A stretch of 64,000 nt of DNA from Candidatus Heimdallarchaeota archaeon (lineage in GTDB: Archaea > Asgardarchaeota > Heimdallarchaeia > Heimdallarchaeales > Heimdallarchaeaceae): assembly GCA_016839945.1 (NCBI GenBank), contig JAEOTE010000007.1, positions 115,799 through 179,798 of the forward strand, given 5' to 3'. Both the position numbers and the translations under genes were made by a program. Below the pieces are notes generated by a model, which was not told where the DNA came from, did not search any database, and saw only the letters and a list, made by a program, of their open reading frames with translations. Shown in pieces: positions 1-21,509 of this stretch. The first letter of the stretch is position 1. Every line of letters begins with the position of its first letter.

Positions 1-3000
1 TTTGTGCAAAAATATCCCAAAGTGTATGAATATTGTTCTTATGAAGTTCAGCTACACTTTGTGGATTGTCACTAATTATATCACTTAGATAATAAAATGG
101 TAAATCTAGATTTCGTTTTATCCTTGAAACCTGAATACTATTCAACTTTGAGGTTTTCACAATCAGTTCTTCGGAAACATTCAAATGTGCTATAGTTGTA
201 TATCCCGATTTGATTAACAGTTTTCTAATATTAGCATCAAATAATCCTATTTTCTTGACACTGTAACTCTTACTCTTCAATGTTTCATTGACTAACTGGC
301 TATTCATCTTATCTTGAAGAGACTTTACAATTGCTTGCTCTTGTTCAGTTAGACTTACGCTTATCGCTTTTCTTATATCTGGAATTGAAACAAAATCAAT
401 AACTTGGATTATACCTTCGTTATGGAATTTTTCCAAAAGTCTTGGTTGATTAATGAATATAAGCATTGGAGCTCTTAACTTCTCGATAATTTTCACAATT
501 TCAGAAGAATAGTCTTTAGGATCTTTGCTTTCAATATATTCAAGTAAAATTCCTATAGTTCGAATATCTTCTTTGCGTAGGAATGATAGTATTTCTTTGT
601 CCTTTATGAACGAACTAAGTCTCTTCTGTTCAGAAGACATCATCCTTTCCACTCTTGTAGAGGAAAGTTTAGGTAGAAGAGATGTACATGTTGTTTCATA
701 TTCTATTTCACTTAATGATTTACAGTAAATTAAGAAATCAAAAACAGTCTGAAGCTTCATCTTATTCATTAAGTCATAAATCTTCTTATTTTCTCTAACA
801 GGTGGAAGAGAAAAAAGATCAGTTTCTACCATGTTCTTTAATGAATCTGAGGTCTTCCAAACACTGCTTGTTTTTGATTTAGCTTGTTTATTGAATACAA
901 GCGCTTCTTCAACTGATAGGATAAAACCTTTCTTAAGGATGGAAATATTGCTTCCTGAAAGTAAATCTTTAGGTATGCTTGTTAGGCTTCCTTCCAACTC
1001 CTTCAAAGTAATTAATGAGATATTCCTTAGATTTCTTAGGAAAACTGGATCAGGGATTTGGCTCTTAATCTTATTATAATCCTCTAACAATAATTCGTCT
1101 ATACTCCTATAGGGAAGTTTTGAGATGATATCAACTTTCAACCTGTTTGGTTGAAGTAGGATTATTGTTCTTTTTAGATGATATGAGAGTTCATTATACT
1201 TCTTGCTTATCTTAGAATGAAGCTTTGAAATTGTTTTATTATAGAGTTCTTTTTCATGTTTTTGCAATAACAAAAGGTATTCTATTGAGGAATCTGACAT
1301 ATCAAGTTTTTGATCTTTTGATTCAAGATTTAATACTTGCATCAGAGTTATACCTTTATTGAAAATAGAATTAATGGCATTTTGAATATCTTCTCTTTGT
1401 TTTTTGGTTACACTTATCTTATTGAGATTCATTGATAAATATGCTAAATCTAGTAGATTGAGAGAATATTCAGTTTTTGATACTAAATCCTTAAGCACTA
1501 ACTTTTCAAATACTTTTATTTTATCAAGTAAATAATTAGGAATCTTATCTAATGATACTTCTTCATCAAAAAGATCGGAGTAATACTTGATACTTCTCTG
1601 ATTTAGAATCGCTATATCCTTTGCAGAGAATATCTTACTTTCTTTTATCACTGGATGGCTTCCAAAATTACTGCTTGTTAAAGAGTATCTTATTTTTTCA
1701 ACTTCTGCTTGTTTTAATAAGAGAATTGAAGCAAGTTCTTTGTTAGTTAATAGATAAAATTCTTCTAAATTCTTAACATAGTTCTGTATGTTTTTCCAAC
1801 TCTTAATTGTAACATCAGGAAGGAGTAAAAGCTCAATGGGTAGTTTTAGAATTCTCTTTATTTTGTTTGCCAGAGATTTGGAAAATGTGAACGTTTCTTT
1901 GTTTAAAGCAAAAATCAAATCATCCATTGTTGAATAATGTTTCTGAATTTCTTTCTTTGTTTCAGAATCGAAAATTTTCACTCTGCTTAACTGTACTTTC
2001 TTCTTAACATCTGTTTCAATTTTCTTGTAAGTTAGTGAAGAGGTAATTTCTAGGATTTTATCTTTCAATTTAGCAGGGGACAATATCATCCAAGAAGAGA
2101 TGGGTTTTATTATGAGATCTCCTATAGTGTAAATACTCTTATCTTCTAAAATCTGTAGATCTGCCTTTGTTAGAACAGCGAGTGAGGAAATGGGTTTGGA
2201 GAATGTTTGTTCAATTTTGAGACCCAAATCCGATAGTGAATCCTCTTTTTGATATAGTGTTGTTATTAAATCCAATATACTCTTAATTTTTGTTGTTTTT
2301 GTTTTCTTTGTGAACAATTCTTTAACATCGCTTTCCTCTATGTATTGATCTTTGGATATATAATTAGCTATTATACCTTCTTTTGATGCTAAGTAGTCTC
2401 CTAAGAATCCAACAATATTTGCTTTTTCTGTAGCATCACTTGTTTTCATTAAATCTCGAAAAGTTACTATTCCAGAATCTAAATAGTTGCTTTTTATTTC
2501 ATTTAGATTCTTTTGATTGATTTTTGGATAATAAAGGACAGAAGTGTTATAGACTTCTTCTGCTTTATTTTGAATTTGTTTAATCTTTTTCTCTGAAACT
2601 AACCAGTCGTAAATTGTGTTATTCATTAAATCCTCGAGATTGTAAATTCCTATAGATTTCAGATAATTTCTGTCTTGAGCTGATAGGAAGAAAATTTCTT
2701 TCAAGTTTTGTTCTGCAACGGAATCTATTCGTTGAACAATCGAATCTACTTTGAAATTCTTAATAGTATTTTGAATAGTTGTGACTTTTACTTTTGAAGT
2801 AGTTGCAATAACTTTAGGAGATAGATAGAAGATATCTGCAATAATATTAACACCTGCAGATTTCATTTTCTCTAAATCTTTAGGATCAAAATCTAGAAAG
2901 CGTAGATTCGCCAATAAATATGGAGTAATTTTCTTGAAAATGACTTCATCATCTTTGAATGTAGGTGATGTCAATATTGATTTGTATGAAGAATATCCTT

Positions 3001-6000
3001 TGTTTGATAAATCAACTTCTAATTCGGATAATGGTTCTTTAAATCCCTCTTCTTTTATACCTTTTATTAACGAGAGAGAGAGAATAATTTCATCTTGAAT
3101 ATTCTTTGGTAATTTATTAAGGAATATCAAATGCTCAATGATGGTTGTGAACCCTTTTTCATAACAATAATCTAGTGACTCTTTTGTTATTGAGGATAAA
3201 TAGCTGATATTATTGGATAATTGACTTCTGTAGTCATCAACTTCTTTTCCTTTTACTTTACTATTAGTTACGATATGACTAACAGGAACGAAGAAAAGAT
3301 GCTCAACTGTTGTTATACCTATTTGAAGGAGAGAAGTTGCTGTCTTCTTTGGTAATCCCAACATTTCAATTGAGATACCAAACTTATCAATTTTCTTCAG
3401 GTTTTTAACAAGATAATCTGGTTCTTCTTTCTGTTTTGTAATAAGCTTACTAAAACTTGCTGGCCAATTCTTCTGAGGTATAGCTAACAAATCGTTATAT
3501 GTTGTTATATTACTATTTAACAAGTCTTTAATTTCTGTATCTTTCAGCTTTAATGATTTTCCAATTAACGTTATTGGGGTTAATAAAATAGAGATGAGTT
3601 TTACAAGATTTTTCTTTTCCTCAATAGGTATTGGTATTAAATCAAGATTAAGCTCTGATGCTTGAACTAGAGATACACAACCATACTCGGAAAGAATGGT
3701 TTTGGTTTCCTTTGTTATTTCAGAGAATAGGCTTAAATCAAGACCTATTAATTTTACATTTTCTTCTAATGATTTAATATCAATAGTTGTTTTAATGGTC
3801 CTTATTTTTTCTTCTGCAACATTGATTAGTTTGGCTAAGAGTGGAGCTGGAATGAGAAGGAATTGGTAAAGGTTTCGAATGCCATTGTGTTTTAGTTTTT
3901 CTATTTGTTTGGAAGTTAGGTTACCTATATAGGATAATGGAATACTTTTTAGTGATAGAAGTAGAGGGCAAACTTCTGAGAGTAATTCTCTTTTTTCTAC
4001 AATCTTACTATCTAGTGATAAAAGCTCATCTAGATAGAGTATTTTTTCATCCTTTAATCTCTTAATAAGAGCTGAATCTGAAACAATCTTAATATCAGAG
4101 AGTTTGATCGCCCATTCTGGAGGGCTTATCTGTATAACTATACTATTAAGAACCTCTACTATTTTAGAATGCAGATCATGATTTTCCTCTTTCTCTGATA
4201 AACATAATAATCCTGATACAATGTTGTTACAATCGCTTTGAGACAAAATATTCAATTGTGCAATGTTAAGCTCAACGTTAGAAATGAGCCATGAAATTGG
4301 CTTAAACATATTTGAAGTGATTATTCTGATTAATGATTTCTCGATATCTCCAAAATCAAAAACTGGGTGAGGTATGAAATCTACTAATAATAGAGCACTT
4401 GATAATCCATATTTCATAAATTGTTCTTCTGCTTTATTTGGAAAGGAGAGAGCATGATCAATATAGTATGAAAATGTTTCTGACATTCTTGTACTCAAAT
4501 TAAATTCTCTTTGGAATATTCTTATTTGCTTTGCTACAGCTTTTGGTATACCAATTATTGTGTTGACATTTGTTGAGAGAAGTTCAATAACATGTTTAAT
4601 ACCATTATTCCATAGAACTCCTTTAGAAGAAATATCAAAACCTGGTAATGCAAGAACATTCAAACACAGAAAGCTAACTAATTGTTCAATAAATGCTATG
4701 CTTGAGATTTTTTCTATTCTTTCAGATTCTGATAGTTGTAGCAGTGCATCTGGGATAAAACCAAATATATCTTCTACAGCTTTTTTTGTTGGATCGAATT
4801 CAAGAGATTTAAGCAAGTTGATTATAGGTTCGTTAAGGGTTAATGTTCTACCTTTTGAAAGTGTGAAAGTGCCTTTCCTAGCTGAACTTATGGTTTTTGG
4901 AATTGAACCATTCAAGGCTCGTTTCAAATCCTTATCTGAACAATTAAAGAGATCAATCAACCTCAGAATTCCTTCACTAGTTAAGTTTAGTTTCTCCTCT
5001 GAAGATAACTCTGAAATTCGGTAAATTGAGATGTGACACGCGTTTAGAAAATCTCTCATATAGTCCCCAGAGACACTCAATGTAGGATATGCTTGATAAT
5101 TTGAACTATACAAATCTTGAACATGTATTTTTCCAGATTTAAGTAGAGAATTAATTTTTCCCTTTGATAAAACAAAGAAGTTTACTAACTCGACACCTTT
5201 TCGTTTAACTTCTTTCATCAAATTAGAAGGAGTGATTTTGTCCAAGTATGTTTGCACTTTTTTCTCTGACATGTTTAGTAAAAGAGAGATTGTAGAAACA
5301 TCCTCTGTAATAAAGGAGAGGATATCACCTACACCTGAATATATAAGCTTCATTACATGATGATTATCTAAACCAATAAAAGCTACAGAAGAGCGATATA
5401 GTTGCACTTCTCTAAAGATATCTAATCGAACTAGAGCAGGACGAGATTCTCTTATTTCTTCCATTCTTGATATAAAGTCTTGTACGGAGTTGATACCTAT
5501 ATCTAGTAGTTTTTCGAGATAATCTTCCTCAATTGAAGGACAAACAGTAAGAGGTATAGCAGAACTAATTCTTCTTTCTGATAACTCATCGAATGATATG
5601 AGATCTAGTGCATGAAACTCTTTGTATATTGGATTTTGCGTAATTGTAAATAACTCATCTCTATTCAATAAAGCAAGATCTATAACGGAATTTATTTCAT
5701 GATACTCCAGACGTTTAATTTCATCATAAGATAGAAAGCCTATGAATCGGATTGAGCCAGATAAGAGTTCTTTTGCTTTCTTATATACGTCAACTTGAAG
5801 TATTTCAGAGATACCTAACAAAGATGCTGAATAGAAGAGAGTTTCAATATCTGTAATCCCTAAATCTTTTAGCTCATCTAGTTTTTTCTCTGGTATTAGT
5901 TCTGATGGTCTTATTAAGTGAGATTGTGATAAACGGAAGGACACAATATCGGTGTAGGTTAGACCTTCTTTTATTTCTCTTATTTGTTTCTGGGAAAAAC

Positions 6001-9000
6001 CAGAGATTTCTGAGAGTTGCTTTTCTGGAAGTGAGAAGAAATCAATCAATGTATTAATTGAAGATTTGCTCAACTTGAGAGTAAGTTCTCTTGGAAGCCC
6101 CATGGAAGCTATTGGGATTGCTAATTCCATTATTAGTTTATTAAGAGAGTCAGTCTCCATTAAACTTGAGAAGAAAGGCGAGAGGGCAGAATGTTCCTCC
6201 AGATTTATTTCAAATACATCACCAATTATGACGTTTTTGTATTCTTCTCTACGAGCTTTTCTGATCTTAGTGAAGAAGGGTGTGATTCTAAGAGGTAACT
6301 CTAAAATTGATCGAATTAATGTTAGATTATAATGATCTGTAAGGTATTGTTTGTCTTTACCAGTTAAGTCTTTTATAACTTTTGGATCAGTAATAACATC
6401 TGATAACGTTTTATTTTCTACTTCTTGAATAACCCTGTTGAAATATGATGAATTATATACAGATGCAGGTAGTTTAGCGAAGTAATGGAAAGCTTGCATT
6501 ACTATTATTTTTGAAGAATATGTAGAAACAACTCTGTAAAGCACTGGGTCTTTAAGATCTATATCAGGAATGAAAAGTAATTGGTAAACATAATGGATAT
6601 CATTTTGTTCTAAAACCTCTAATGAAAATTCTGAAATCTCTGTAAAAATCTTCAAAGGTAAGGTGAGGTATTTCTTAACAGCTGATATCTTTATCCACAA
6701 TTCTGGATTAGAGAAATAATACTGTTCTTCTATAGTATAGAATATTTCTTGAATTGTTTGGAATCTTTCAAAGTGGAATATTGAATCTTTACTCAATAAT
6801 CTTTGTTCAAGTTTATCAAACAATTGAGTTTCAAAAGCAAAAATACCCTTTTGTTCATACATTGCTTGAATGCTTGAGGATGTCAGAGAAGTTATTATAC
6901 TTTCAGCATCCTTTGGAGAGATTTTTATGAGTTTGCTTAGTTTTTGAGATGATGCAAGAATAAACTCAGATATTGTTTTTATTCCATTTTCTCTTAGAAT
7001 TTCTGTTTGACTAAATGAGAGCGATGGTAAGAAATAAACAGGTAGTGAGAAGTAGCCAAATATATCTGAAAAGTCTAAAGCACTTTTTATTGTTTCAAAT
7101 CTTTCATCTGGTATTCCTGTTTTTTCCATCAGAACTTCAGGAGAGGATAACATAAAACCAAGTAAAGTCCTTATTTTTGCTTTTTCTAATAGTTCTATGA
7201 TTTCAGGATCTAGCATATCAGAAATATGATCCAAAGATAGATTCAAGATAGCTTTAAAGGATTCAATAACATCCCATGGTAAAATTTCCTCATTCCACTT
7301 ATCTTTTGAAGTTGAGAAGTATAAATCCTCAATTGTCATTATGTTATTTTCATCCAACACTCTGACAATTCTAGGTTCTAATATTCCTAATTCAGAAAGG
7401 TCAATTCCAGTATCACTTATTCTAACATTCCTTTGAAGAAGTATAGCTTCTTCATTATCTACTCCTAAGAAAGAAGCAATATCTTCAGATTTACTTACTA
7501 GTAAATCAATAATTTTAGTGATTCCATTATTTCTCAAAATGTTGAGTTGTTGGGTTGTCAAGGTTCTAGTTTGGACCTCTTCTATTTCTTGTGTTTCTTC
7601 GGATTCTTCAACTTGAACAGTTTTCTTGATGATTTTCTCCCATGTTACTAGTGTTAAAGGAGACCTCAGTAGCTTTCTGAACTTATCAATGACATTCCAG
7701 TTAACTACTGCTGAAGAAAAAGTGAGAGGGTGGGCTAAGTAAAAAATCTTATCCACTGTATCATAGCCAGAAAGTATTAGTGATACAATTTCGTGTGAAG
7801 AAAATCTCTCTGATTCTTCGTATTCAAATGATATTAGAGAAGTATATTTATTTCCTGATTTTTCAAAGAAATGAGTACCTTTTTTCTCAATTGCGAAAAC
7901 ATCTATTAATTGCTGGGTTTCTTGAGTAGACCTTACTAAAGTAGCTGCTAACTCATCAATAGTATATTCAAATAATTGATGAATAGCTGTTATCCCTCTG
8001 TTCCTTAATTTATCAAAATCTTCAAGAGTTAACTTACTTATTCTAGAAATTGGTAAACCTAGAGTTTGAACGAATTCATCATATTCACTAATTAGTAAGA
8101 TTTCCTTACTAAATTGATCAGTTTCTGAAAATGTTCTATTCTTGATATTATTGTGAAGCTCAATAACAAGTTTTCTTTCTTTAGCAGTGTTTAACTCAGA
8201 TTCAATAATTTCTGGAATAAGATCTAAAAATTGTCTTACTGTTACAATATTTCTTAATTTCAAACGAAGAAGAGCTTCTGTAAGCAGAGATAAATCCTTG
8301 AATTTGTCTGGATATAGTTGAGTAAGTTCGATTATTTCCATATTCGCTAATTGATTTAAATGTCGAATATTTTCCCAAAAACCTGTATTCAATGTTGGTT
8401 TTTCAGTAGGGTAAACACTGTATAGATCTTGGATTGTTAGGTTATGTTTTTCTATGAATTGAACTAATCTTGGATATTGGTTACTAAGTAAACTCAAACT
8501 CTTTCCAAATTCTGTTCTATTCTTTTTTACTTCTTCTTCACTTATTGATTGTTTTAAATCCTTTACCCTTTCTTCTGATATGTTTAATACATCAGATAAA
8601 TCAGAATTAGACCAGATTGAGAACCTGCCAATACAGTTTATTCCTATTTCTTGCAATAAATATGATTGCCTTCTTAATGAAGGAAATGCAAAAGATATAG
8701 GAGTTAATAAAAGATTTGCAGTTTCTAGATATGTTCTTTTTGCTTCTCCTGTTAGATTGTAAGCTTCAGGAGGATTGTAAAAAATTTCCTCAATAGATAC
8801 TATTCCTGCAGTTTTTAGTGTTTCTTGATGTTTTATCCATTTGAATATTGGAGTTCCAAGACTCTTTTTTATTCTCTCAACATCTTTTTTTCTCAAACCT
8901 AACTTTCTTAATTGAGGTGATGGAAATGCTAAGAATGCAGTAGTTGTAAAAATTTGAAGATTAACTAATTGTTGCTCAATATCCTTTGGTATTACTTTAA

Positions 9001-10140
9001 CGTGAGACAAATCTTTATCTTTCTTTGACTCTCGAATGTGAGATATTAATTTGTGTTTTGATTCCTTGAGTAGTAGATCACCTATCAATTTGTAATCTCT
9101 TTTCAAAATTGATGCTGTGGGTAAAGAGATTAGGTTAGTAAGAGTCTTTATACCTTTTTGAGATAGAACCTTTATGGCTTCTGTTTCCTCTTCCCTAAGT
9201 ATTTCATCAGAAATTAACTCAAATTTAGATAGTTCAATAGATTCTGAGGATTTGACTAGAGTATCTAGAAAGGTATTGTACAAATTCCTCTCTAGTTCCT
9301 TTATTACAACAAGATCATCTAGTTTAGCATTAATTAAATCCTCAATTGTTTTTATTTTTCTTCTATGAAAAGCGTTCTTAGTATAAGCATCTGTCCAATC
9401 AGGTTTCATCTTAGTTACATTGGTCTTAGAAAATGTAGGAAACTTATCACATAGTTGAGAAAAAATATTTTGCAGGTAATTAACTAAAACAGCTGTTACT
9501 TCTGTTTGATAGTTTACTGAATATGGTAATTTTGTTTGGTAAAGAAATTCTTCAATGGTTGTATCTTGAGATATCAAACCTTTAGAATTATCTTTTAGAT
9601 ACTCAAAAGTTGGAAATAGTGTATCTATTTTTATGTCATCAACTTTGGTGAGTGAAGCCAGAAGTTGTTTTCTTTTTTCTGATTTAGCTTTACTTGTTTT
9701 ATCCTTGGTTAGTAAGTACTGATGAAGGAGCTGTTCTTTTTTATTTTCGAAAAGTTTCTCTAGTAATCCAGTAACTGTTTGTAGTTTGTTAAAATCTGTA
9801 GCGAAATAATGGTAACTGTTTTGTATCCATCTTCGATATAAAGCCTCTTTTAATGTGATTATAGTTTTTTCATTTTGAGTAAATCTTCTTTCTATAGTTC
9901 TACTTACAAAGAGTTTAGGATCAAAACTAGGGCTCATTCCCTCTCTATCAAGTTCAGATATCGTTCTAAGTTTGATATTGTAGATATCTTGTTTAGTAAG
10001 TTCTAACAGTTTTGCTATATTATCAGATGGTGTTATGAGAAAATCAGAAATAGATTCAATATTGTTTGTTCGAAGAACTGATTGAATTCTTGATGGACAC
10101 CATACATTAGCACCAAATAATCTTCTTCCCAAAGGCATGA
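1..10140 (-). repeat. Protein-level degenerate tandem repeat array (about 40 or more HhH/SAM-like units) in the Top6B C-terminal extension
   Basis: Recurring L-x-x-x-G-I-x-T-I-x-D/E-L/F core, e.g. LRTNNIESISDFL, LSQKGIKTLTNLI, LKTAGIVSIEEIF, LRNNGITKIIDLL, LRENGIKTISEFI, LKDLGITDIETLF, LKHNGIRNLYQFL, LLQIGITTVEHLF, LKSIGIYNLEDLM, LIKSGYTTIAHLN. No DNA-level repeat identity noticed. Confidence 0.85.
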
Positions 10141-11839
10141 AGAGCTTAACTTTTTTTGTTGCACCATGAGCCAAGGCCGCAGCAATTCTGTCAGTTTCTA
10201 ACCTAAAATCAGTATAATTAACTGCTTCATCTTCTAAAATTTTTGTTAGATTATCTATGATTATTGGTGCAGATCTTACAAAGCGTGATAATCTTGCATG
10301 CTCTCTTCTTCTTCTTTTAGCTCTGCTTAAAAATGTCTTTAGTCTTCTCCCCAACTGCATTAATGCTAATCGTATCTCTTCCTCAATCTCAGGAACAATG
10401 GATATATATTCTTTACTTGTTTCTGGAAAAGGAATCTTAGTACTTACTACTGATACAGCTACAGCTAGAGGATCAGATTGCCTTGTTAACCCATATTCAT
10501 TCCATCTTATTGAAGAAACAGTATGAGAAATAACATCGTTCCCTGCTCCAAATATGAGTGGGATACGATTTGCGTACCTATAAATTATTTTATTATCTTG
10601 AACGGTAGCTCCCTTTACTTGCGAAGCTTCATTTACTCCCCCTCCATAACCTATTGCTACTTCTACAACAAAGGGATGACCAGAATAAGCTTTAGGAGCT
10701 CTTGTTACAGCTTCTACAAATTTAGGTTCCAGTTCTTTTTCTAAACCCCTCCTTAATCTATTCGATCCTAATGGTGATAAAGCAGTACCTTTTGGATCAT
10801 CAAACTGAAATATTCTATCTCTTTTTCTTTTAACATCTTTCGCTTCTTGGTAAGCTTTTACAAAACCTTCATGAACTATTCTTCTGATTTCGTGAGAGGT
10901 AATATCTTTTGGAGATTTGTTTGGATCAATCTCTAAAAGTTGGAAGAAACCTTCTGCTATTTCCTCATTTACTCCCATGAATTGTGTTGCTAGAAATTGC
11001 TTGAGTGTTTTGCTTTGACTTGCAGTTAATTCTGCCTTGAACTGAGTAATATCACACCCCCATGGATGAATTTTAACTGGTTGAGGAGGGGGAGGCATAT
11101 CATCTACAACACTAAGAAAGTCCAGATCTTCATATTCACCTTCTTTATCTGCAGGAACTTTGATTTTAAAACTGGAATAAGGGGTAATAATTGCTAATTG
11201 CTTAAAATATTCTTTTACGCTATTCTTAGCAAGCCTCCATGCTCCTGTAAAAGTGATTGATATTTCTGTTCCAGGTTCTTCAAGATAGTTTGGATCTCCT
11301 GGTAGGTACTCACGTTGTTCCATGATTACAGGTTCGTTCTTTTCAAGATTTATCATTAAATGAAGCTCATGGGTAATATCATCCATAAAGTATCTGCTTC
11401 GTATTTTTGCAGGTAAGTCAACAGATGACATAGAGTATAGCAAACACATTTTTGCTCCTAAACCAAAACGACCTCGTGTTTGAATTACTCCGTATTTTGT
11501 TCCAGTCAATACTCTCCCAAAAAGTTCAGCAATCTGGTGTCCAGGAACTCCTATCCCATTATCTTTACAGGTTAGTTGTAGAAAATCTAGATGCTTTTCT
11601 AATTTTCTGTATTGCGTAACATCAAGCAATTCATTTATTTCTCTGCTGGAAAGTTTTCTTAAGTCTAAATCAATAACAGGATTAATTCCTCTTTTTTCTG
11701 CTGCATCTAGTCCATTCTCAACTAACTCTCTGATACTTGTGAAAACAGCTCTCATTGAATTACCAAAACCAGCAATGGCTCTGTTTTCATTAAAGAAAGC
11801 AGCAGCTGACATTTTTTTTGTAACTGTATCTTCTGACAC
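1..11839 (-). CDS. top6B: Giant DNA topoisomerase VI subunit B fused to a long HhH-like repeat array (>=3946 aa, 3' end outside window)
   Basis: Manual translation from GTG at 11839 (SD-like AAGGTG upstream): MSEDTVTKKMSAAAFFNENRAIAGFG...RELVENGLDA (GHKL N-box)...CKDNGIG (G1)...GTKYGVIQTRGRFGLGAK (G2)...GTEI...HPWG...RYANRIPLIF...RWNEYG (WxxY)...STKIPFPETSKEY (switch Lys). The same frame reads ...LHKNNIHTLWDIFAQ at bases 2-46. The ORF track has no minus-strand ORF in 1-11.8 kb, as expected for one ORF with no stop in the window. Confidence 0.93.
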   Translation of the reverse strand, partial: MSEDTVTKKMSAAAFFNENRAIAGFGNSMRAVFTSIRELVENGLDAAEKRGINPVIDLDLRKLSSREINELLDVTQYRKLEKHLDFLQLTCKDNGIGVPGHQIAELFGRVLTGTKYGVIQTRGRFGLGAKMCLLYSMSSVDLPAKIRSRYFMDDITHELHLMINLEKNEPVIMEQREYLPGDPNYLEEPGTEISITFTGAWRLAKNSVKEYFKQLAIITPYSSFKIKVPADKEGEYEDLDFLSVVDDMPPPPQPVKIHPWGCDITQFKAELTASQSKTLKQFLATQFMGVNEEIAEGFFQLLEIDPNKSPKDITSHEIRRIVHEGFVKAYQEAKDVKRKRDRIFQFDDPKGTALSPLGSNRLRRGLEKELEPKFVEAVTRAPKAYSGHPFVVEVAIGYGGGVNEASQVKGATVQDNKIIYRYANRIPLIFGAGNDVISHTVSSIRWNEYGLTRQSDPLAVAVSVVSTKIPFPETSKEYISIVPEIEEEIRLALMQLGRRLKTFLSRAKRRRREHARLSRFVRSAPIIIDNLTKILEDEAVNYTDFRLETDRIAAALAHGATKKVKLFMPLGRRLFGANVWCPSRIQSVLRTNNIESISDFLITPSDNIAKLLELTKQDIYNIKLRTISELDREGMSPSFDPKLFVSRTIERRFTQNEKTIITLKEALYRRWIQNSYHYFATDFNKLQTVTGLLEKLFENKKEQLLHQYLLTKDKTSKAKSEKRKQLLASLTKVDDIKIDTLFPTFEYLKDNSKGLISQDTTIEEFLYQTKLPYSVNYQTEVTAVLVNYLQNIFSQLCDKFPTFSKTNVTKMKPDWTDAYTKNAFHRRKIKTIEDLINAKLDDLVVIKELERNLYNTFLDTLVKSSESIELSKFELISDEILREEETEAIKVLSQKGIKTLTNLISLPTASILKRDYKLIGDLLLKESKHKLISHIRESKKDKDLSHVKVIPKDIEQQLVNLQIFTTTAFLAFPSPQLRKLGLRKKDVERIKKSLGTPIFKWIKHQETLKTAGIVSIEEIFYNPPEAYNLTGEAKRTYLETANLLLTPISFAFPSLRRQSYLLQEIGINCIGRFSIWSNSDLSDVLNISEERVKDLKQSISEEEVKKNRTEFGKSLSLLSNQYPRLVQFIEKHNLTIQDLYSVYPTEKPTLNTGFWENIRHLNQLANMEIIELTQLYPDKFKDLSLLTEALLRLKLRNIVTVRQFLDLIPEIIESELNTAKERKLVIELHNNIKNRTFSETDQFSKEILLISEYDEFVQTLGLPISRISKLTLEDFDKLRNRGITAIHQLFEYTIDELAATLVRSTQETQQLIDVFAIEKKGTHFFEKSGNKYTSLISFEYEESERFSSHEIVSLILSGYDTVDKIFYLAHPLTFSSAVVNWNVIDKFRKLLRSPLTLVTWEKIIKKTVQVEESEETQEIEEVQTRTLTTQQLNILRNNGITKIIDLLVSKSEDIASFLGVDNEEAILLQRNVRISDTGIDLSELGILEPRIVRVLDENNIMTIEDLYFSTSKDKWNEEILPWDVIESFKAILNLSLDHISDMLDPEIIELLEKAKIRTLLGFMLSSPEVLMEKTGIPDERFETIKSALDFSDIFGYFSLPVYFLPSLSFSQTEILRENGIKTISEFILASSQKLSKLIKISPKDAESIITSLTSSSIQAMYEQKGIFAFETQLFDKLEQRLLSKDSIFHFERFQTIQEIFYTIEEQYYFSNPELWIKISAVKKYLTLPLKIFTEISEFSLEVLEQNDIHYVYQLLFIPDIDLKDPVLYRVVSTYSSKIIVMQAFHYFAKLPASVYNSSYFNRVIQEVENKTLSDVITDPKVIKDLTGKDKQYLTDHYNLTLIRSILELPLRITPFFTKIRKARREEYKNVIIGDVFEINLEEHSALSPFFSSLMETDSLNKLIMELAIPIASMGLPRELTLKLSKSSINTLIDFFSLPEKQLSEISGFSQKQIREIKEGLTYTDIVSFRLSQSHLIRPSELIPEKKLDELKDLGITDIETLFYSASLLGISEILQVDVYKKAKELLSGSIRFIGFLSYDEIKRLEYHEINSVIDLALLNRDELFTITQNPIYKEFHALDLISFDELSERRISSAIPLTVCPSIEEDYLEKLLDIGINSVQDFISRMEEIRESRPALVRLDIFREVQLYRSSVAFIGLDNHHVMKLIYSGVGDILSFITEDVSTISLLLNMSEKKVQTYLDKITPSNLMKEVKRKGVELVNFFVLSKGKINSLLKSGKIHVQDLYSSNYQAYPTLSVSGDYMRDFLNACHISIYRISELSSEEKLNLTSEGILRLIDLFNCSDKDLKRALNGSIPKTISSARKGTFTLSKGRTLTLNEPIINLLKSLEFDPTKKAVEDIFGFIPDALLQLSESERIEKISSIAFIEQLVSFLCLNVLALPGFDISSKGVLWNNGIKHVIELLSTNVNTIIGIPKAVAKQIRIFQREFNLSTRMSETFSYYIDHALSFPNKAEEQFMKYGLSSALLLVDFIPHPVFDFGDIEKSLIRIITSNMFKPISWLISNVELNIAQLNILSQSDCNNIVSGLLCLSEKEENHDLHSKIVEVLNSIVIQISPPEWAIKLSDIKIVSDSALIKRLKDEKILYLDELLSLDSKIVEKRELLSEVCPLLLSLKSIPLSYIGNLTSKQIEKLKHNGIRNLYQFLLIPAPLLAKLINVAEEKIRTIKTTIDIKSLEENVKLIGLDLSLFSEITKETKTILSEYGCVSLVQASELNLDLIPIPIEEKKNLVKLISILLTPITLIGKSLKLKDTEIKDLLNSNITTYNDLLAIPQKNWPASFSKLITKQKEEPDYLVKNLKKIDKFGISIEMLGLPKKTATSLLQIGITTVEHLFFVPVSHIVTNSKVKGKEVDDYRSQLSNNISYLSSITKESLDYCYEKGFTTIIEHLIFLNKLPKNIQDEIILSLSLIKGIKEEGFKEPLSELEVDLSNKGYSSYKSILTSPTFKDDEVIFKKITPYLLANLRFLDFDPKDLEKMKSAGVNIIADIFYLSPKVIATTSKVKVTTIQNTIKNFKVDSIVQRIDSVAEQNLKEIFFLSAQDRNYLKSIGIYNLEDLMNNTIYDWLVSEKKIKQIQNKAEEVYNTSVLYYPKINQKNLNEIKSNYLDSGIVTFRDLMKTSDATEKANIVGFLGDYLASKEGIIANYISKDQYIEESDVKELFTKKTKTTKIKSILDLITTLYQKEDSLSDLGLKIEQTFSKPISSLAVLTKADLQILEDKSIYTIGDLIIKPISSWMILSPAKLKDKILEITSSLTYKKIETDVKKKVQLSRVKIFDSETKKEIQKHYSTMDDLIFALNKETFTFSKSLANKIKRILKLPIELLLLPDVTIKSWKNIQNYVKNLEEFYLLTNKELASILLLKQAEVEKIRYSLTSSNFGSHPVIKESKIFSAKDIAILNQRSIKYYSDLFDEEVSLDKIPNYLLDKIKVFEKLVLKDLVSKTEYSLNLLDLAYLSMNLNKISVTKKQREDIQNAINSIFNKGITLMQVLNLESKDQKLDMSDSSIEYLLLLQKHEKELYNKTISKLHSKISKKYNELSYHLKRTIILLQPNRLKVDIISKLPYRSIDELLLEDYNKIKSQIPDPVFLRNLRNISLITLKELEGSLTSIPKDLLSGSNISILKKGFILSVEEALVFNKQAKSKTSSVWKTSDSLKNMVETDLFSLPPVRENKKIYDLMNKMKLQTVFDFLIYCKSLSEIEYETTCTSLLPKLSSTRVERMMSSEQKRLSSFIKDKEILSFLRKEDIRTIGILLEYIESKDPKDYSSEIVKIIEKLRAPMLIFINQPRLLEKFHNEGIIQVIDFVSIPDIRKAISVSLTEQEQAIVKSLQDKMNSQLVNETLKSKSYSVKKIGLFDANIRKLLIKSGYTTIAHLNVSEELIVKTSKLNSIQVSRIKRNLDLPFYYLSDIISDNPQSVAELHKNNIHTLWDIFAQ

Positions 11840-15138: not shown

Positions 15139-16395
15139 TTAATTTTCGCTATTTTCTGCTCTTACTTTAATAAGATAGTTAGGTTTTTCCCATATAACAT
15201 CCAAATCTGAAAGGTCTATGGTTCCCATACTCTCCTCATTTTCACCATAAATTTCTACAAAAATCTTCGAAAACAAATCATATTTACCCAAGATTTGATT
15301 TGGTAACATGTTACTTGTGAAAATTCCTCTAATAAGCGCACCATTTGTTCTCTTAGGAAGGATTGAGAACATTACATCAAGGTTCGAGTAATTTCTTCTA
15401 ATCTTCTGATATTCCTTTGTAATTAATCCTTGGTTACCTGGCTGGATTACTAGGAAACCTCTAGTGGATTGATCCTCTGTTATGAAGTTCCAAGCAAGTT
15501 TATTATTTTCTATTAACTTCGATAATACAGGATTATTGTCATAAACATCGACTGAATATATTAAGCAAGGTCCTTTTGTTTCGTTGAAGATTCTTAGAAA
15601 ATTACTTAAATCTATATGGTAGAACTCTGAGGGTGTTTGTGATGCAATAAGAAGATCTGAAATAATATGAGCCTCTCTATCATATAGTTTAGATTTCAAG
15701 ATATCTAAATCTACATTCGTATTGGCTTTTATTAAGCTATTTTCATCATACAAAATAAAGGGTACATCAATATCTGTTGATTCTTTCATTAACCTATGAA
15801 TGGTTGTAAGAACATTGAATTCTTGGATTATCTCTATCTCATGTGGTGGAATATGAAAAGACAAGATAGGCTGAAGGTTTTTTTCTTTTAGGTATTCAAC
15901 TATTTTAGTTATTAACCCAATAGTAAAAGCATCGTTTTCTACAAATATGAAAATAAGAGAGGTATCTTTAAATTGTTTGTTTAATTCTTGTGTTACTTTT
16001 TCTTTATTCTCCTCAAACCATGCAATTCCTCTTGAAAAAGTATTTTCCAACAATTTCAATGTAGGAGTCTCAAGAAAAGGAATGTTAGCACCTAAATCTT
16101 GTGATAGGTTTGAACGAGAAATCAAAAGTGAGGACGGAAACTTATCTTTAATTTGATTATTCATCGCTTTAAGAATCTCAAACCCATAATTTTCAGTAAA
16201 TATTAAACCAGAGGAGATTTTATTAATCTCAGCTTCTACAAAAAGTGTGTCTGATGATTCGCTTCCAGATAATTGTTTATCTGTCGTTTTGCTTTGTTTT
16301 ATTATTGATTCAAAATTAAAACTATAAAGTGCATTATATTTTTCAGGAGGATCTCCCTCTATTTTTTTTCCTTTTTTTCTGAATAGCGCTTTCAT
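15139..16395 (-). CDS. Degenerate tubulin/FtsZ-fold protein lacking the GGGTGS signature
   Basis: Collinear with 19344..20483: HIPPHE/VVPEKDE, QEFNV/VQYNA, PFILYDENSL/PVILFDNEKL, YHIDLSNFL/YNANLKDFF, RGFLVI/LGYLTI, IRGIFT/IRGILT. Confidence 0.65.
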   Translation of the reverse strand: MKALFRKKGKKIEGDPPEKYNALYSFNFESIIKQSKTTDKQLSGSESSDTLFVEAEINKISSGLIFTENYGFEILKAMNNQIKDKFPSSLLISRSNLSQDLGANIPFLETPTLKLLENTFSRGIAWFEENKEKVTQELNKQFKDTSLIFIFVENDAFTIGLITKIVEYLKEKNLQPILSFHIPPHEIEIIQEFNVLTTIHRLMKESTDIDVPFILYDENSLIKANTNVDLDILKSKLYDREAHIISDLLIASQTPSEFYHIDLSNFLRIFNETKGPCLIYSVDVYDNNPVLSKLIENNKLAWNFITEDQSTRGFLVIQPGNQGLITKEYQKIRRNYSNLDVMFSILPKRTNGALIRGIFTSNMLPNQILGKYDLFSKIFVEIYGENEESMGTIDLSDLDVIWEKPNYLIKVRAENSEN

Positions 16396-16482
16396 TTTAC
16401 ATCACTTTTTCAAATACAGATATTTCACCTTTCTTTTAAGACTTTTTCATTGATGATTTGGATAAATTGTTTATTCATTAAA

Positions 16483-17907
16483 TTAATGTTTCCCAGCTAA
16501 TGTTTCTTGAACATTGAGAATTTGTATAGTGTTAGTTTTACCAGCTAAACCAACTATGGAACCTGCAACAAGAACAACATTATCTTCAGGATTAATTAAT
16601 TCTTCAGATTGAAGTTTGTGAATAGAGCTATATACAAGTTGTTCATATTCAGTTTCATAATGATGCAAGATAGGCTTAACTCCCCATAATAACCTTGTAG
16701 ATCTCAAAGTTGTTTGAGCTGGAGTTACTACATATATTGGAATTGGAATTCTATTTCTTGAAACCATTCTTGCTGAATAACCTGTTTGAGTTAGTGCGAT
16801 TATTGCTTTGGCAGACATTCTCTTTCCTAAATTCACAGCAGCTTGGCCTGTTTCAAAACCAATTGGATTCTCTTCACTTATCAAATCTGGAACTGTACAA
16901 TTGAAGTTCTTTTCTGCTTCATTAATAATATCTTTCATTACTCTTACTACTTGAAGAGGGTATTTTCCTGTTGCCGTTTCTGAAGACAGCATGAGAGCAT
17001 CAGCTCCATCAAAGACAGCATGTGCAACATCACTAGCTTCTGCTCTTGTTGGTATTGATTCTTTGGTCATAGATTCAAGCATCTGAGTAGCAACTATTAC
17101 AGGTTTGGCATAAGACATTCCTAGATTAATCAGATTTTTCTGAACAACAGGAACTTTAGCAGGACCAACCTCAATAGCTAAATCACCTCGAGCCACCATT
17201 AATCCATTACTATATTTTAAGATCTCTTTGATATTTGTCAATGCATCTTGATGTTCAATTTTTGCAATAAGTGGAATTGGTTTCTTTAATGATGTTTCAA
17301 CAATTTCATTCACTTTCTTCAAGTCATCAATACATCGTACAAAAGAAACAAAAAGGAAATCAGTTTCCAAACTGCATGCTTTTTCTATATCTAAGAGATC
17401 TTTTTCAGTTGGTACATGAATAGATAAATCAGCATCGGGAACGTTAATTCCCTTATGAGAAGAAATTTCCCCACCATCAATAACAACACAATCGATTAGA
17501 TTATTTTCTATTGATTGGACTTTTAGTTTTATAAAACCATCATTTATGAAGATGAATGAACCTTTCTTAACCTCTTCTGGAAGTGATGGATAATTAACTG
17601 GAAGAAGTGTTTTTGTACCAACAATTTTATCTGAAGTTAGTTGAATTCTATCATTTTCAACAAGGTCAAATTTTTCTTCTAATTTACCAAGACGGATTTT
17701 GGGACCACTTATATCAATAGCTATAGCTAAAGAATCACTTAGTTCTCTTAATTTGTTAAAAACTGTTTCATGAGTATTATGGTCACCATGCGAGAAATTT
17801 AATCTTGCAATATCCATCCCCTCAGAAATCAATTGCTGAAGTGTATCTTCTGAACTAGAAGAAGGCCCTATTGTGCAAACTATTTTTGTTAATCTCAAAT
17901 CTATCAA
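16483..17907 (-). CDS. pyk: Pyruvate kinase
   Basis: TKIVCTIGP, RLNFSHG, GPKIR, KIE, MVARGDL, ATQMLESM, PTRAEASD, MLSSETATGKYP. Confidence 0.97.
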   Translation of the reverse strand: MIDLRLTKIVCTIGPSSSSEDTLQQLISEGMDIARLNFSHGDHNTHETVFNKLRELSDSLAIAIDISGPKIRLGKLEEKFDLVENDRIQLTSDKIVGTKTLLPVNYPSLPEEVKKGSFIFINDGFIKLKVQSIENNLIDCVVIDGGEISSHKGINVPDADLSIHVPTEKDLLDIEKACSLETDFLFVSFVRCIDDLKKVNEIVETSLKKPIPLIAKIEHQDALTNIKEILKYSNGLMVARGDLAIEVGPAKVPVVQKNLINLGMSYAKPVIVATQMLESMTKESIPTRAEASDVAHAVFDGADALMLSSETATGKYPLQVVRVMKDIINEAEKNFNCTVPDLISEENPIGFETGQAAVNLGKRMSAKAIIALTQTGYSARMVSRNRIPIPIYVVTPAQTTLRSTRLLWGVKPILHHYETEYEQLVYSSIHKLQSEELINPEDNVVLVAGSIVGLAGKTNTIQILNVQETLAGKH

Positions 17908-17972
17908 AATAAAGTTCTCAATTAGTAATAAAATTCTTCCGCAAAAAGATAGAAAGCATTAAAAATAAGCGA

Positions 17973-19343
17973 GTGCTATATTTTTTTGTTATGGACTCCA
18001 ATTCTTCAAAACCTGTTTCTGTTAAAGCAAATTATGTTGTTCCAGATGACGTTGAACTCCCCAATTTTGATTTCGAGAACCTTATAATAGAGCACTATAA
18101 GAAATATCCTAGAACAGCTGCTCTAGTGGAGAATCCCACATATGTTAAAGCTATAATGCAACCTTTTAGAAAGTTTTACTTGGTCCCTTTAGCTTTATTT
18201 AAACTAAAACTAAACACAATTCTTTCCTTGAGATGGAAAGAATATCTCAAGTTATGGATATATGTTGTAATAATGTTTATACCAACATTACTTTTTACAA
18301 TCATACCTTTAGAAAAAGCTTTTGAAGGTTTTTCAACAAGTAGATGGATTGCTGATATACTTTTTAATGTAGGAATACCTATACTTATTGCTATTCTACT
18401 CTCATTGTTTTATTTGAAATACACACATGATGGATTTTTGGGATTAACTTTGGCAAAAAGAATTGAATGGCTAGAGAAACCTGTAAGGGAATATTATACA
18501 AAATATTATGATCGAAAACTTCCTAAGAACCCATTTATTATTTTAGCATCTCTTGCTACAGGAATTGGAATACAAATTCCATTGATACAGTTTTCAAATG
18601 CAAATGGGTATAATGCAGCTGCGGCTTTTGGAATCATTGCTTGTATCTTTAACCCTGTACTATTCTATATTTTCTTCGTAGCCTCTTATTATATGATTAT
18701 CAACACAAGATTGTATTCAAAAGTTCTCAAACCTATTAAGGATAGAATTAAAACATATATGAAAGAATATGGAACTCTATTGAACAGAGAAAATTATGAC
18801 ATTATTTGGTCTTTGGGAGACAAATGGAGTAAAGGTCGTTCAATTCGTCAACTAGAAAACATTCCAACAGCAGGTATTCTATCTACTTTGATAATAATAA
18901 TAGCTATGGGGATGGGTAATGCAAATGAACTAATTTATGCCTTAGCTGGTGAAATGCCTTTAGTTAATTTTGAATTTCTTTTCATCCATGTGGGGCAACC
19001 TGTAACAGTACTAGTAGTAACGATTTCAGCGCTTGTAGCTGCATTAATGGTATTAGTCGTTTTGTTACCTCTAATTATATTTCATTCTAGAATGAAGAAA
19101 TTCAAAATCAAAGCTTTAATGGAACTTGATAATTATATTTTCGCAAATGTTGTTGAGTTTGAAATAAGGTATGCTGAAGTGGCTAAGCAAGAAAATGTAA
19201 CAATGTTTCAGCTTCGTGAATACATAGCTTCAATGCGAACGTTTCCTATTTCAACTTCAAAGTTGTTTAGAACAATAATGGCGGTAATTATCTGGATCTT
19301 GAATATGTTGAAGATTATCAGATCAGTAGGAGGAGGATTATAG
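17973..19343 (+). CDS. Polytopic membrane protein of unknown function (likely start ATG 17991)
   Basis: About 6-7 hydrophobic segments; stop abuts the ATG of the next gene, with GGAGG SD inside its 3' end. Confidence 0.8.
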   Translation: MLYFFVMDSNSSKPVSVKANYVVPDDVELPNFDFENLIIEHYKKYPRTAALVENPTYVKAIMQPFRKFYLVPLALFKLKLNTILSLRWKEYLKLWIYVVIMFIPTLLFTIIPLEKAFEGFSTSRWIADILFNVGIPILIAILLSLFYLKYTHDGFLGLTLAKRIEWLEKPVREYYTKYYDRKLPKNPFIILASLATGIGIQIPLIQFSNANGYNAAAAFGIIACIFNPVLFYIFFVASYYMIINTRLYSKVLKPIKDRIKTYMKEYGTLLNRENYDIIWSLGDKWSKGRSIRQLENIPTAGILSTLIIIIAMGMGNANELIYALAGEMPLVNFEFLFIHVGQPVTVLVVTISALVAALMVLVVLLPLIIFHSRMKKFKIKALMELDNYIFANVVEFEIRYAEVAKQENVTMFQLREYIASMRTFPISTSKLFRTIMAVIIWILNMLKIIRSVGGGL

Positions 19344-20483
19344 ATGTCTTGGTTAAAACGCAAACTTTTCAAGAAGAAGATTTCTGTAGCTATTATTGGA
19401 GTAGGTAATGCTGGATGTAGAATAGGAGAACAAATTATTCATCACCTTAGGGAGAGCAAAATCACAGTAAAATCATTAGCTATAAATCATGAAGATAATT
19501 TTCATCCAAAAATCAATAATTATTCAGATGAATTCTGGTTTGGATCAAAGAAGAATCTATCATCAAACTATGAGTTAGAAGATGCAATGAGTGATTTGAA
19601 GAAAAAGGAAATAGATTTACGAGACAAACTTGAGAAAGTTGTTTTTTACAAACGAGATGATAGAAGAAGTGATGATGATTTAGCTTTGCATCTTATTGTA
19701 GGAAGTGGAGGAGGTACTGGTAGTGCAGGATCTATGATTGCTAGTAATCTAATTACTGATATAGTAGGTGATCCCCCCACTGTAATCTTTGTAGTTCCTG
19801 AAAAAGATGAACCATCACTAGTTCAATATAACGCTGCAAAAGCTCTCTTCCACTTAGGATTCGACTTAAAAGGTCCTTATTGCCCAGTAATTCTCTTTGA
19901 TAATGAAAAACTATTGAATTTTTATTCAGATGAACAGATTGAGCAAGCTCTTGAAAAGAGTAATGAAATACTAGCAGAGACTTTAACAACTACAATTCTT
20001 GCTGCTTTACAAGAAAGCACTCATGAAGAGTATAATGCTAATCTCAAAGATTTCTTTAGCTCCTTCACAAGAGAAGCTAGAGGATTAGGAGTGATTGTTT
20101 CTCTTGACAAAGAATTTGAAACTTTAGAAATAGCTCAAAATATCAGATTTTCTGATCTTTTCTTCGGTGAATTAGATGAAAATTCAAGCTTGACAGCTGA
20201 TGTAACAAGGGCAAAACTTGGATATTTAACAATTTCAACACCAACAACTTATCAATCAACGTTCGAAACAAGAAAAATAGTAAAGAAATTTGAAAGAGGA
20301 GATATTAAAGCAGCTCTCAACTCGATAGATGAACCATTTCTTACAATTAGAGGAATCTTAACAGGTATTCATCCGGATTATGTTGATCGGTTCTGGGAAA
20401 TACTGGAAAAGGGAAGAGATAGCAGAAAAAATATTCTAGAAATTGAATCAAAAATAAGAGAATCCTATATAAGTTTAACATAG
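19344..20483 (+). CDS. Divergent tubulin/FtsZ/CetZ-superfamily GTPase
   Basis: T1 IIGVGNAG, T4 GSGGGTGSAG, T5 VVPEKDE, YNA, T6 LFDNEKL, T7-equivalent NANLKD; basic/aromatic N-terminus MSWLKRKLFKKK. Confidence 0.88.
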   Translation: MSWLKRKLFKKKISVAIIGVGNAGCRIGEQIIHHLRESKITVKSLAINHEDNFHPKINNYSDEFWFGSKKNLSSNYELEDAMSDLKKKEIDLRDKLEKVVFYKRDDRRSDDDLALHLIVGSGGGTGSAGSMIASNLITDIVGDPPTVIFVVPEKDEPSLVQYNAAKALFHLGFDLKGPYCPVILFDNEKLLNFYSDEQIEQALEKSNEILAETLTTTILAALQESTHEEYNANLKDFFSSFTREARGLGVIVSLDKEFETLEIAQNIRFSDLFFGELDENSSLTADVTRAKLGYLTISTPTTYQSTFETRKIVKKFERGDIKAALNSIDEPFLTIRGILTGIHPDYVDRFWEILEKGRDSRKNILEIESKIRESYISLT

Positions 20484-20525: not shown

Positions 20526-21509
20526 TTGAACATAATGAGTGATAAGAGTATTTGCCCTAGTTGTAATAGGGAAATTAAACCTACATCAAAATTTTGTAAA
20601 TTCTGTGGAGTAACACTGAAATCTTGCCCTTCATGTAATGAGTTTAATAAGGTGGAAGATGCTTTTTGTGGGTCATGTGGAGAAGATATTAGCAAATTGA
20701 TTATACCCATACCTCATAGAAAGGAAAGTGAAGATTCAGCTTATGCGCCAATAATTGAAGAAATAGAAGAAGGTGAAAAAAGACCAAAATTAGTAGTTTG
20801 GCCACCACAATATGCAGAGGCTAGACCACAAATACAACCAAAACCTACTCCTGAATTATTTGAAGAGGGAACCCAATATGAACCTACAAAAGTTCAATAT
20901 CAGTATAGTAAAGTTAAACCAATTGGATTTTTAGGAGGACCATTACCAACTTCGAATGTTCTAAGTGTAACACTTGAAGCTTTTGGACTAGCGTTAGCTC
21001 TTGTGGCAGCTGGAATTGTGATTGTAAGCATTGGTTTTGCATTCTTCGAGTATCTAGTGTTTCCAGTAATAACTGGAATTTTGGGAGGAGCTCTACTCTT
21101 ATCCGCACCATTTTTTGGAATCTATTATGTGAGTTCTAACTGGCTTTACAAAGCTTTTCAAATCAAGAGACCTGTAAAAATAAGAACAGTAATCCTGAAT
21201 TATACATTAGGAACATTGTTATTTGCCATATTTGGTATGATGTTAGCACCAATCTTTATACAAGGAGGAGCACTAGCTATTACTTTTTCAGTAGTAGGTG
21301 GAATAGTATATCTTATGGGATTAATAGTAATTCCATTAAAAGCATATCTTGCTGATTTGGTTTATGTTAAAGCTGCAATGAAGCATAGAGATAAAGAAGA
21401 GGAAGATAAAGCACAAGAAGAAAAAGACGTTGAAGAAATAGAGAAAAAAGAAGAGAAGGGAAAAAAGGAAGTTAAAACTTCTAAGAAGAAAAAGGAGAAG
21501 AAAAAGTAG
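20526..21509 (+). CDS. Double zinc-ribbon membrane protein with charged C-terminal tail
   Basis: CPSC-CKFC-CPSC-CGSC, Pro/Glu linker, 4 TM segments, E/K-rich tail; likely start ATG 20535. Confidence 0.8.
   Translation: MNIMSDKSICPSCNREIKPTSKFCKFCGVTLKSCPSCNEFNKVEDAFCGSCGEDISKLIIPIPHRKESEDSAYAPIIEEIEEGEKRPKLVVWPPQYAEARPQIQPKPTPELFEEGTQYEPTKVQYQYSKVKPIGFLGGPLPTSNVLSVTLEAFGLALALVAAGIVIVSIGFAFFEYLVFPVITGILGGALLLSAPFFGIYYVSSNWLYKAFQIKRPVKIRTVILNYTLGTLLFAIFGMMLAPIFIQGGALAITFSVVGGIVYLMGLIVIPLKAYLADLVYVKAAMKHRDKEEEDKAQEEKDVEEIEKKEEKGKKEVKTSKKKKEKKK

Follow-up and report, generated by a model that had tools for sequence, protein, structure and literature searches.

The window analyzed here, a 64,000-nucleotide stretch of contig JAEOTE010000007.1 (positions 115,799 to 179,798 of the forward strand, assembly GCA_016839945.1) from Candidatus Heimdallarchaeota archaeon, encodes two tubulin/FtsZ-fold paralogs, termed A and B, and a dedicated membrane protein, MEM (Table 1). 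We conclude that A, B and MEM represent a real and new variant of the tubulin superfamily, in which B combines a tubulin fold with what sequence and model indicate to be a dead GTP pocket and probably docks on the GTP-bearing face of A. New here are a reversal of roles between the paralogs in a sister family, a natural experiment in the loss of B, and conservation that is specific to particular faces. A preliminary description of this DNA had noted the two open reading frames (ORFs) and their motifs, all of which are present where it placed them; the dedicated MEM, the ancestral three-gene operon and the role reversal in Kariarchaeaceae were not mentioned in it.

Paralog A is recognized by the Pfam Tubulin profile (35 bits vs. 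a cut-off of 33). Its AlphaFold2 (AF2) model is confident, with a predicted local distance difference test score (pLDDT) of 85.1, and is best matched by TubZ and CetZ, followed by FtsZ and the tubulins. Among 29 Heimdallarchaeaceae orthologs loop T1 is kept in 27 and the GGGTG signature of T4 likewise in 27, while the Asp-Asn of T6, the helix-7 Asn and the final, catalytic Asp of T7 are found in 29/29 each. The first T7 Asp is present in 18/29, and an Asn at this position (Asn233) occurs in the present genome only (1/29). Complementary motif loss in the two paralogs, as originally proposed, is thus not a property of the family, since A keeps its pocket and catalytic Asp. The ratio of nonsynonymous to synonymous substitution rates (dN/dS) of A is 0.04-0.10. 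In the two complete genomes G006 and G005 (L058, L059) T1 of A has drifted to an Asp-containing form, as in Kariarchaeaceae A.

Paralog B gave no match in Pfam, NCBIfam or a sequence search of the PDB with phmmer, and a profile search reached CetZ only at E 0.033. Its AF2 model is nevertheless confident (pLDDT 88.6) and matches CetZ, TubZ, BtubA, FtsZ and tubulins with VIA Z scores of 26.5-19 (next fold at most 9.4), the CetZ match (Z 26.5) extending over 309 residues with a root-mean-square deviation of 3.9; Foldseek gave E 5e-17. These results confirm for the 418-amino acid (aa) protein the fold on which the preliminary description depended. The profiles of A and B align over 302 columns (probability figure 98.2%, E 5.7e-14), in line with the reported end-to-end similarity; at the level of plain BLASTP that similarity shrinks to A145-341 (E 5e-4), and B carries an extra N-terminal arm of ~60 aa relative to A.

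Loss of the pocket is complete in Heimdallarchaeaceae B: T1, T4, the T6 Asn and the helix-7 Asn are all missing in 24/24 Heimdallarchaeaceae orthologs. The segment IFVENDAFTIG, from which the loss of both the T1 and T4 glycines had been read, corresponds to T4 only; T1 is represented by FTENYG (residues 66-71), and both motifs are indeed lost. The first T7 Asp, correctly described as retained, is found in 23/24 orthologs, and the catalytic position is Asn in 20/24. The B proteins of the two complete genomes (L058, L059) have Asp at this position. Full-length ORFs and a dN/dS of 0.13-0.23 across ten genome pairs rule out a decaying pseudogene, and indicate from sequence comparison that B is under purifying selection despite the pocket loss. 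The basic/hydrophobic N-termini pointed out earlier are conserved in the A and B families alike, with a net charge of +2 to +8 in full-length Heimdallarchaeaceae copies.

Conservation was scored by structural element, and the elements were defined before the A:B complex was predicted. In B, T7/H8, H10 and S9 are conserved above the protein mean, and T1, T2, T5, T6 and H11 below it; at interface positions the minus face scores 0.51 and the plus face 0.27, for a protein mean of 0.39. The corresponding values for A are 0.77 for the minus face, its most conserved surface, 0.56 for the plus face and 0.67 overall. The complex of A and B predicted with GTP and Mg gave an interaction prediction score from aligned errors (ipSAE) of 0.88 vs. 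0.00 for the best control; the mark applied to this score is reached by 58/80 solved pairs and 2/110 mismatched pairs. Runs agreed in at least 90% of contacts, and the partners had pLDDT of at least 88. In the predicted interface T7/H8/H10/S9 of B lie on T1/T2/T3/T5/H6-H7/H11 of A, which is the geometry of solved tubulin protofilaments.

Two sister genomes, G007 and G011, have lost B from the locus by deletion, and no copy was found elsewhere in these assemblies, which are 86-89% complete; A persists in this lineage. Eleven changes at conserved sites are private to the A proteins of these two genomes. Of these, eight are located on the plus face, and the minus face has none (p 0.0014; control pairs 28/99). 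Seven, including E153K, E156A/D, L190R and K362D, map to the predicted interface or to its immediate surroundings (p 5e-5). As surface conservation, the predicted complex and the changes on A after B loss all agree, we consider it likely that the T7 (minus) face of B contacts the GTP (plus) face of A. The A proteins of the lineage lacking B (L256:504-1664, L257:2064-3236) have also gained an acidic, Glu/Thr-rich C-terminal tail.

The distribution of the three genes was screened in 400 Asgard genomes, ~350 of them outside the order. The names of homologs assign the window to Heimdallarchaeaceae and the sister family to Kariarchaeaceae. A and MEM are each present in 29 and B in 26 of 30 other Heimdallarchaeaceae genomes, and all three occur in 12/12 Kariarchaeaceae genomes. 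B lies within ~5 kb of MEM-A in 23/27 Heimdallarchaeaceae genomes, the other four being contig breaks, and in the sister families the genes form one tight, co-oriented B-MEM-A operon on 13 contigs; A and B thus co-occur and stay linked, as had been expected. The module is chromosomal in the complete genomes G005/G006, with housekeeping neighbors. The MEM profile had no credible match in the ~350 Asgard genomes outside the order and only 19 matches among 1.84 billion representatives, and nothing better than 2e-16 was obtained outside the order with the B profile. A, B and MEM are thus spread through this one order (Heimdallarchaeaceae, Kariarchaeaceae) and found essentially nowhere else. A complete B-MEM-A operon on a 4-kb contig of a Hodarchaeales-type bin (L065, G052:C52), whose B nests inside Kariarchaeaceae, is the sole Hodarchaeales occurrence; it is probably a misbinned contig, with transfer as the alternative. 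Across the order there is one canonical FtsZ per genome, away from the A/B locus. A SepF-like gene (PF04472) is located elsewhere in the genome and in 27/30 Heimdallarchaeaceae genomes; with the same query SepF was not found in 16 sister-family genomes, though FtsZ is present there.

In a tree of A, B, FtsZ, CetZ, TubZ, Asg.Tub, AtubA/B and OdinTubulin, the two paralogs form one branch with support of 100/100 (B 99/98, A 92/86). Both the CetZ clade (99/97) and the Atub+Odin branch (100/100) exclude A+B, which also stand outside the FtsZ, TubZ and Asg.Tub clades; the tree supports these separations but no particular deep order among the families. The proposed distinction from FtsZ1/2, CetZ and OdinTubulin is therefore upheld. 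Given the single branch, the pair derives from one duplication that predates the split of the families. The stem of Heimdallarchaeaceae B is very long (1.64), consistent with a burst of change at pocket loss.

Which paralog keeps the pocket differs by family. Kariarchaeaceae B has the G-x-G-G-x-G T1 (12/12), a GGTG-type T4, the T6 Asp-Asn, the helix-7 Asn (12/12) and a T7 that is mostly D-x-x-E. In Kariarchaeaceae A, T1 contains Asp, T4 is of the GATG type in 8/12 and the helix-7 Asn is missing from 12/12, yet the catalytic Asp is kept in 12/12. Judged by these motifs, the roles look reversed in Kariarchaeaceae, with B the intact GTPase and A eroded. In the third family of the order both A and B are eroded. 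One Kariarchaeaceae genome (L097, G037:C52; L071/L078) encodes a true AtubA/B pair as well as the A/B/MEM module, at separate loci.

The MEM stop codon abuts the ATG of A. MEM had no match in Pfam or NCBIfam, and an Atlas search returned unnamed clusters only, with low recognition; the protein carries conserved cytoplasmic stretches, the cytoplasmic parts lying at about residues 245-300 and 372-430. A and B are in opposite orientation, as stated in the preliminary description, but they are not adjacent: 2.9 kb separate them, with pyruvate kinase and MEM in between. Pyruvate kinase is unlikely to be a functional part and is regarded as a passenger because it is missing from the locus in some genomes; five genomes lack it in the interval from B to MEM (from coordinates; two were read fully). 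In five Heimdallarchaeaceae genomes B and MEM lie head to head, at most ~200 bp apart by coordinates. No RNA family was found in the window, and a promoter scan of it, built for bacterial promoters, stayed at chance level.

Table 1. Features of the A/B/MEM locus and its surroundings, in window positions.
Feature	Position	Strand	Remarks
Paralog A, tubulin/FtsZ-fold protein, 379 aa	19344..20483	+	Intact T1, T4, T6, helix-7 Asn and catalytic T7 Asp236; no T3 GxG; no FtsZ tail
A N-terminal peptide	19344..19379	+	Basic/aromatic, candidate membrane-targeting helix; conserved across family
A loop T1, residues 19-24	19398..19415	+	Motif alignment
A loop T4, residues 120-127	19701..19724	+	GGGTG signature; motif alignment
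A loop T7, residues 231-236	20034..20051	+	Asn233 private to this genome; Asp236 invariant
Paralog B, putative tubulin-fold pseudo-GTPase, 418 aa	15139..16395	-	T1, T4, T6 Asn and helix-7 Asn lost; first T7 Asp kept, catalytic position Asn
B N-terminal peptide	16363..16395	-	Basic/hydrophobic; conserved in family
B dead T4 equivalent, residues 152-160	15916..15942	-	Motif/profile alignment
B loop T7, residues 260-265	15601..15618	-	D-x-x-N; part of predicted contact with A GTP face
MEM, dedicated membrane protein with 6-8 transmembrane segments, 456-aa ORF	17973..19343	+	Likely start 17991; between B and A in sister-family operon
Pyruvate kinase	16483..17907	-	Syntenic neighbor across order; missing from locus in some genomes
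Double-zinc-ribbon membrane protein downstream of A	20526..21509	+	Possible accessory; near A in Heimdallarchaeaceae only
Coiled-coil and winged-helix-like protein, 194 aa	22159..22743	-	Conserved near A in Heimdallarchaeaceae
Protein with LVIVD repeats, 1,000 aa	12004..15006	-	Hydrophobic ends; constant neighbor in Heimdallarchaeaceae only
ORF of at least 3,946 aa, open at window edge	2..11839	-	N-terminal part of topoisomerase VI subunit B (PF09239 at 349-515), fused to a very long tail that matches helix-hairpin-helix / RAD51D_N-like domains; long versions at same place in relatives

We propose, at slightly less than even confidence, that A forms a membrane-linked polymer on which B acts as a GTP-locking plus-end cap. 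On this view a CetZ/TubZ-grade gene would have been duplicated at the base of the order, and A, B and MEM would work together as a single cytoskeletal module that is linked to the membrane and does not serve division. Heimdallarchaeaceae A would be the working GTPase, with its basic N-terminus and the co-translated MEM keeping it at the membrane; a precedent is OdinFtsZ1, whose N-terminal amphipathic helix tethers this Asgard tubulin-superfamily protein to liposomes (PMC12583498). That MEM is the anchor seems somewhat probable. In tubulin-type polymers the incoming subunit contributes a T7/H8 acid that hydrolyzes the underlying GTP; where this residue is not acidic the GTP is locked, as with the Lys of beta-tubulin (PMC13371889). 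A subunits would join head to tail, Asp236 of one promoting GTP hydrolysis in the next; the invariant Asp needs a GTP-bearing neighbor, which here can only be A, and this argues for an A polymer with a B cap. Polymerization of A as such is fairly likely in our judgment.

B would then dock by its T7/H8/H10/S9 minus face on the GTP-bearing plus face of A. With Asn265 at its catalytic position, B may lock the GTP of A, like the beta-tubulin Lys at the non-exchangeable (N) site. As the plus face of B has neither pocket nor nucleotide and no conserved surface, nothing would add on top of it and growth would stop. B might thus control how long filaments grow and where, either as a stabilizing plus-end cap or as a sequestering partner. 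We lean towards capping rather than alternation: of the two roles first suggested, a heteropolymer or a capping pseudo-GTPase, the cap fits best, and strict alternation in Heimdallarchaeaceae fits poorly with an unconstrained B plus face and with a lineage that keeps A after deletion of B. The likely output would be local membrane or cell shaping; by analogy, the CetZ-like grade, the membrane linkage and the separate FtsZ give such a function about an even chance.

Several observations weigh against this capped-polymer proposal. T3 of Heimdallarchaeaceae A lacks the GxG, and the plus face of A is less conserved than the A mean. The minus face exceeds the plus face in three of four groups, so this contrast is partly structural. 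The predicted complex resembles solved tubulin/FtsZ protofilaments, and its high score may reflect memory of these; the controls came from outside the tubulin cousins, and A(+)/B(-) was the only pairing of the paralogs that was scored. The B-loss comparison is a single evolutionary event, and two T5 variants were known before counting; moreover, if the plus face of A relaxed once B was gone, it might serve mainly B, not A-A polymers. Two distant MEM copies (L111:8001-9380; L112:5674-6981, the latter at a contig end) have no tubulin gene beside them on their contigs.

Some of the same observations would suit a membrane switch that does not polymerize, in which MEM sits on the minus face of A and B over its GTP face, making the trimer a nucleotide-gated regulator. 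The high conservation of the A minus face (0.77) together with an unconstrained B plus face, the stability of the A minus face and drift of its plus face once B is lost, the translational coupling of MEM to A with its conserved cytoplasmic stretches, and the missing T3 GxG are all as such a switch would have them. We nonetheless consider it unlikely: the catalytic Asp of A, kept in 29/29 Heimdallarchaeaceae and 12/12 Kariarchaeaceae, is best explained by contact with the GTP of a neighboring subunit, and to our knowledge every characterized tubulin relative with such elements polymerizes.

An alternating ABAB heteropolymer, convergent on alpha/beta-tubulin with A as the locked N-site and B as the exchangeable (E) site, is similarly improbable. 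It fits Kariarchaeaceae better than Heimdallarchaeaceae, as in the former a kept B pocket (T1 and helix-7 Asn in 12/12) faces an A with catalytic Asp (12/12) and eroded pocket, which is textbook E-site geometry; the A(+)/B(-) contact supported by prediction and conservation and the single operon of the sister families are also in its favor. Yet Kariarchaeaceae B, unlike beta-tubulin, keeps a catalytic T7 Glu, and in Heimdallarchaeaceae the plus face of B is below average conservation (0.27 vs. 0.39) and A survives the deletion of B. Under this reading the ABAB arrangement would be ancestral; Kariarchaeaceae would have retained it, and in Heimdallarchaeaceae it would have been reduced to a static filament with a nucleotide-free inter-dimer contact.

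It is quite unlikely that A and B are independent paralogs linked only by descent, B having a separate structural role and not binding A. The split of B from the MEM-A unit in Heimdallarchaeaceae, its changes of orientation, its loss in one lineage and the very long stem would all be expected from such independence. Against it stand the selective conservation of the T7 face of B, a predicted interface that clears the mark and the changes on the matching face of A when B is lost. An accessory division role, replacing the second FtsZ that is absent from the order, has hardly any likelihood: the single canonical FtsZ per genome and the near-universal retention of the module would suit it, but A and B are not FtsZ-derived in the tree, have no FtsZ_C match or tail and are not linked to ftsZ or sepF, and Hodarchaeales likewise have one FtsZ without an A/B/MEM module.

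CetZ (Haloferax CetZ1/2, Methanosaeta CetZ; PDB 4b45, 4b46, 3zid) is among the top structural matches of A and B, shares H11 with them and is archaeal and non-division; two orthologs are named 'Tubulin-like protein CetZ' automatically at NCBI. However, the GQAG T1, GVG-x-D T3 and S-E-type T7 (DSSE) found in 9/9 CetZ each are not seen in A or Heimdallarchaeaceae B, which form a separate clade and an asymmetric pair with a dedicated transmembrane protein. TubZ/RepX of Bacillus plasmid/phage type III partition (PDB 4ei7, 2xka), the top Foldseek match for both paralogs, shares the D-x-x-D/E type of T7; A and B differ in being chromosomal, single-copy, vertically inherited and in a separate clade, with no TubR/centromere gene beside them and no plasmid match for their locus. 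Like alpha/beta-tubulin, BtubA/B and AtubA/B (PMC13394414, PMC13371889), A and B are a duplicated, operon-encoded pair with one partner non-catalytic at T7/H8, and are predicted to form a head-to-tail dimer over GTP that the A Asp / B Asn pattern would fit. Unlike these, they stand outside the tubulin clade, and with the pocket of B wholly lost by sequence only one partner would bind nucleotide.

The Asg.Tub proteins (Santana-Molina et al. 2023, PMC9871819) are also CetZ-like Asgard paralogs, but belong to a Hodarchaeales/Thorarchaeia family next to genes of 1,100-1,300 aa (long coiled-coil-type upstream); the separate clade and this different neighborhood rule out that A and B are Asg.Tub. 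The Asg.Tub loci (L081-L095, L245) hold at most two paralogs in a genome; a gene of 1,100-1,300 aa immediately precedes each of them, and two small-GTPase-like genes are neighbors of one copy. FtsZl1 operons (Makarova and Koonin 2010, PMC2875224) similarly combine a tubulin-superfamily gene, additional to canonical FtsZ, with membrane proteins, and have been proposed to act in membrane remodeling. In contrast to FtsZl1 (PF13809), A and B have no Tubulin_2 match above cut-off and no coiled-coil extension, T6-H7 and the C-domain are present, and no vWA gene occurs at the loci. OdinFtsZ1 (PMC12583498) differs in being a canonical FtsZ; no PF12327 (FtsZ_C) match was found at the A/B locus, TIGR00065 scored 21.8 bits vs. 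a cut-off of 295, and both paralogs fall outside the FtsZ clade, so membership in FtsZ1/FtsZ2 is not indicated. No description of the A/B/MEM module was found in the searchable literature, which did not cover subscription papers. In the accessible part of a 2026 preprint a 'CetZ-related Asgard clade' serves as outgroup without characterization, and members of the module may stand unnamed in trees.

True tubulins (AtubAB) occur in ~1% of Asgard genomes (PMC13394414) and are thus too rare to be the general tubulin-type cytoskeleton of Heimdallarchaeia. The A/B/MEM module, annotated so far as 'hypothetical' or 'CetZ', is present in nearly every genome of one order, two complete ones from Heimdallarchaeaceae among them. 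Its states form a natural series, from two roughly intact pockets through an eroded A and a dead B to the deletion of B. This series lets one study the change of a homopolymer into an asymmetric dimer or the acquisition of a cap, an open question of alpha/beta-tubulin origins. More tentatively, the module might be a second, independent asymmetric tubulin-type heterodimer, in an Asgard order that neighbors the eukaryote-related Hodarchaeales. It would be a two-subunit cytoskeleton anchored in the membrane; GTP binding would have been the task of B, as in Kariarchaeaceae, before A took it over in Heimdallarchaeaceae, with the A(+)/B(-) contact preserved throughout and one partner turned into a built-in end cap. 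If this is true, no earlier prokaryotic example would exist of a tubulin-fold capping protein that has its own integral membrane anchor. Asgard archaea are close relatives of eukaryotes, and A, B and MEM are amenable to expression and assay in vitro.

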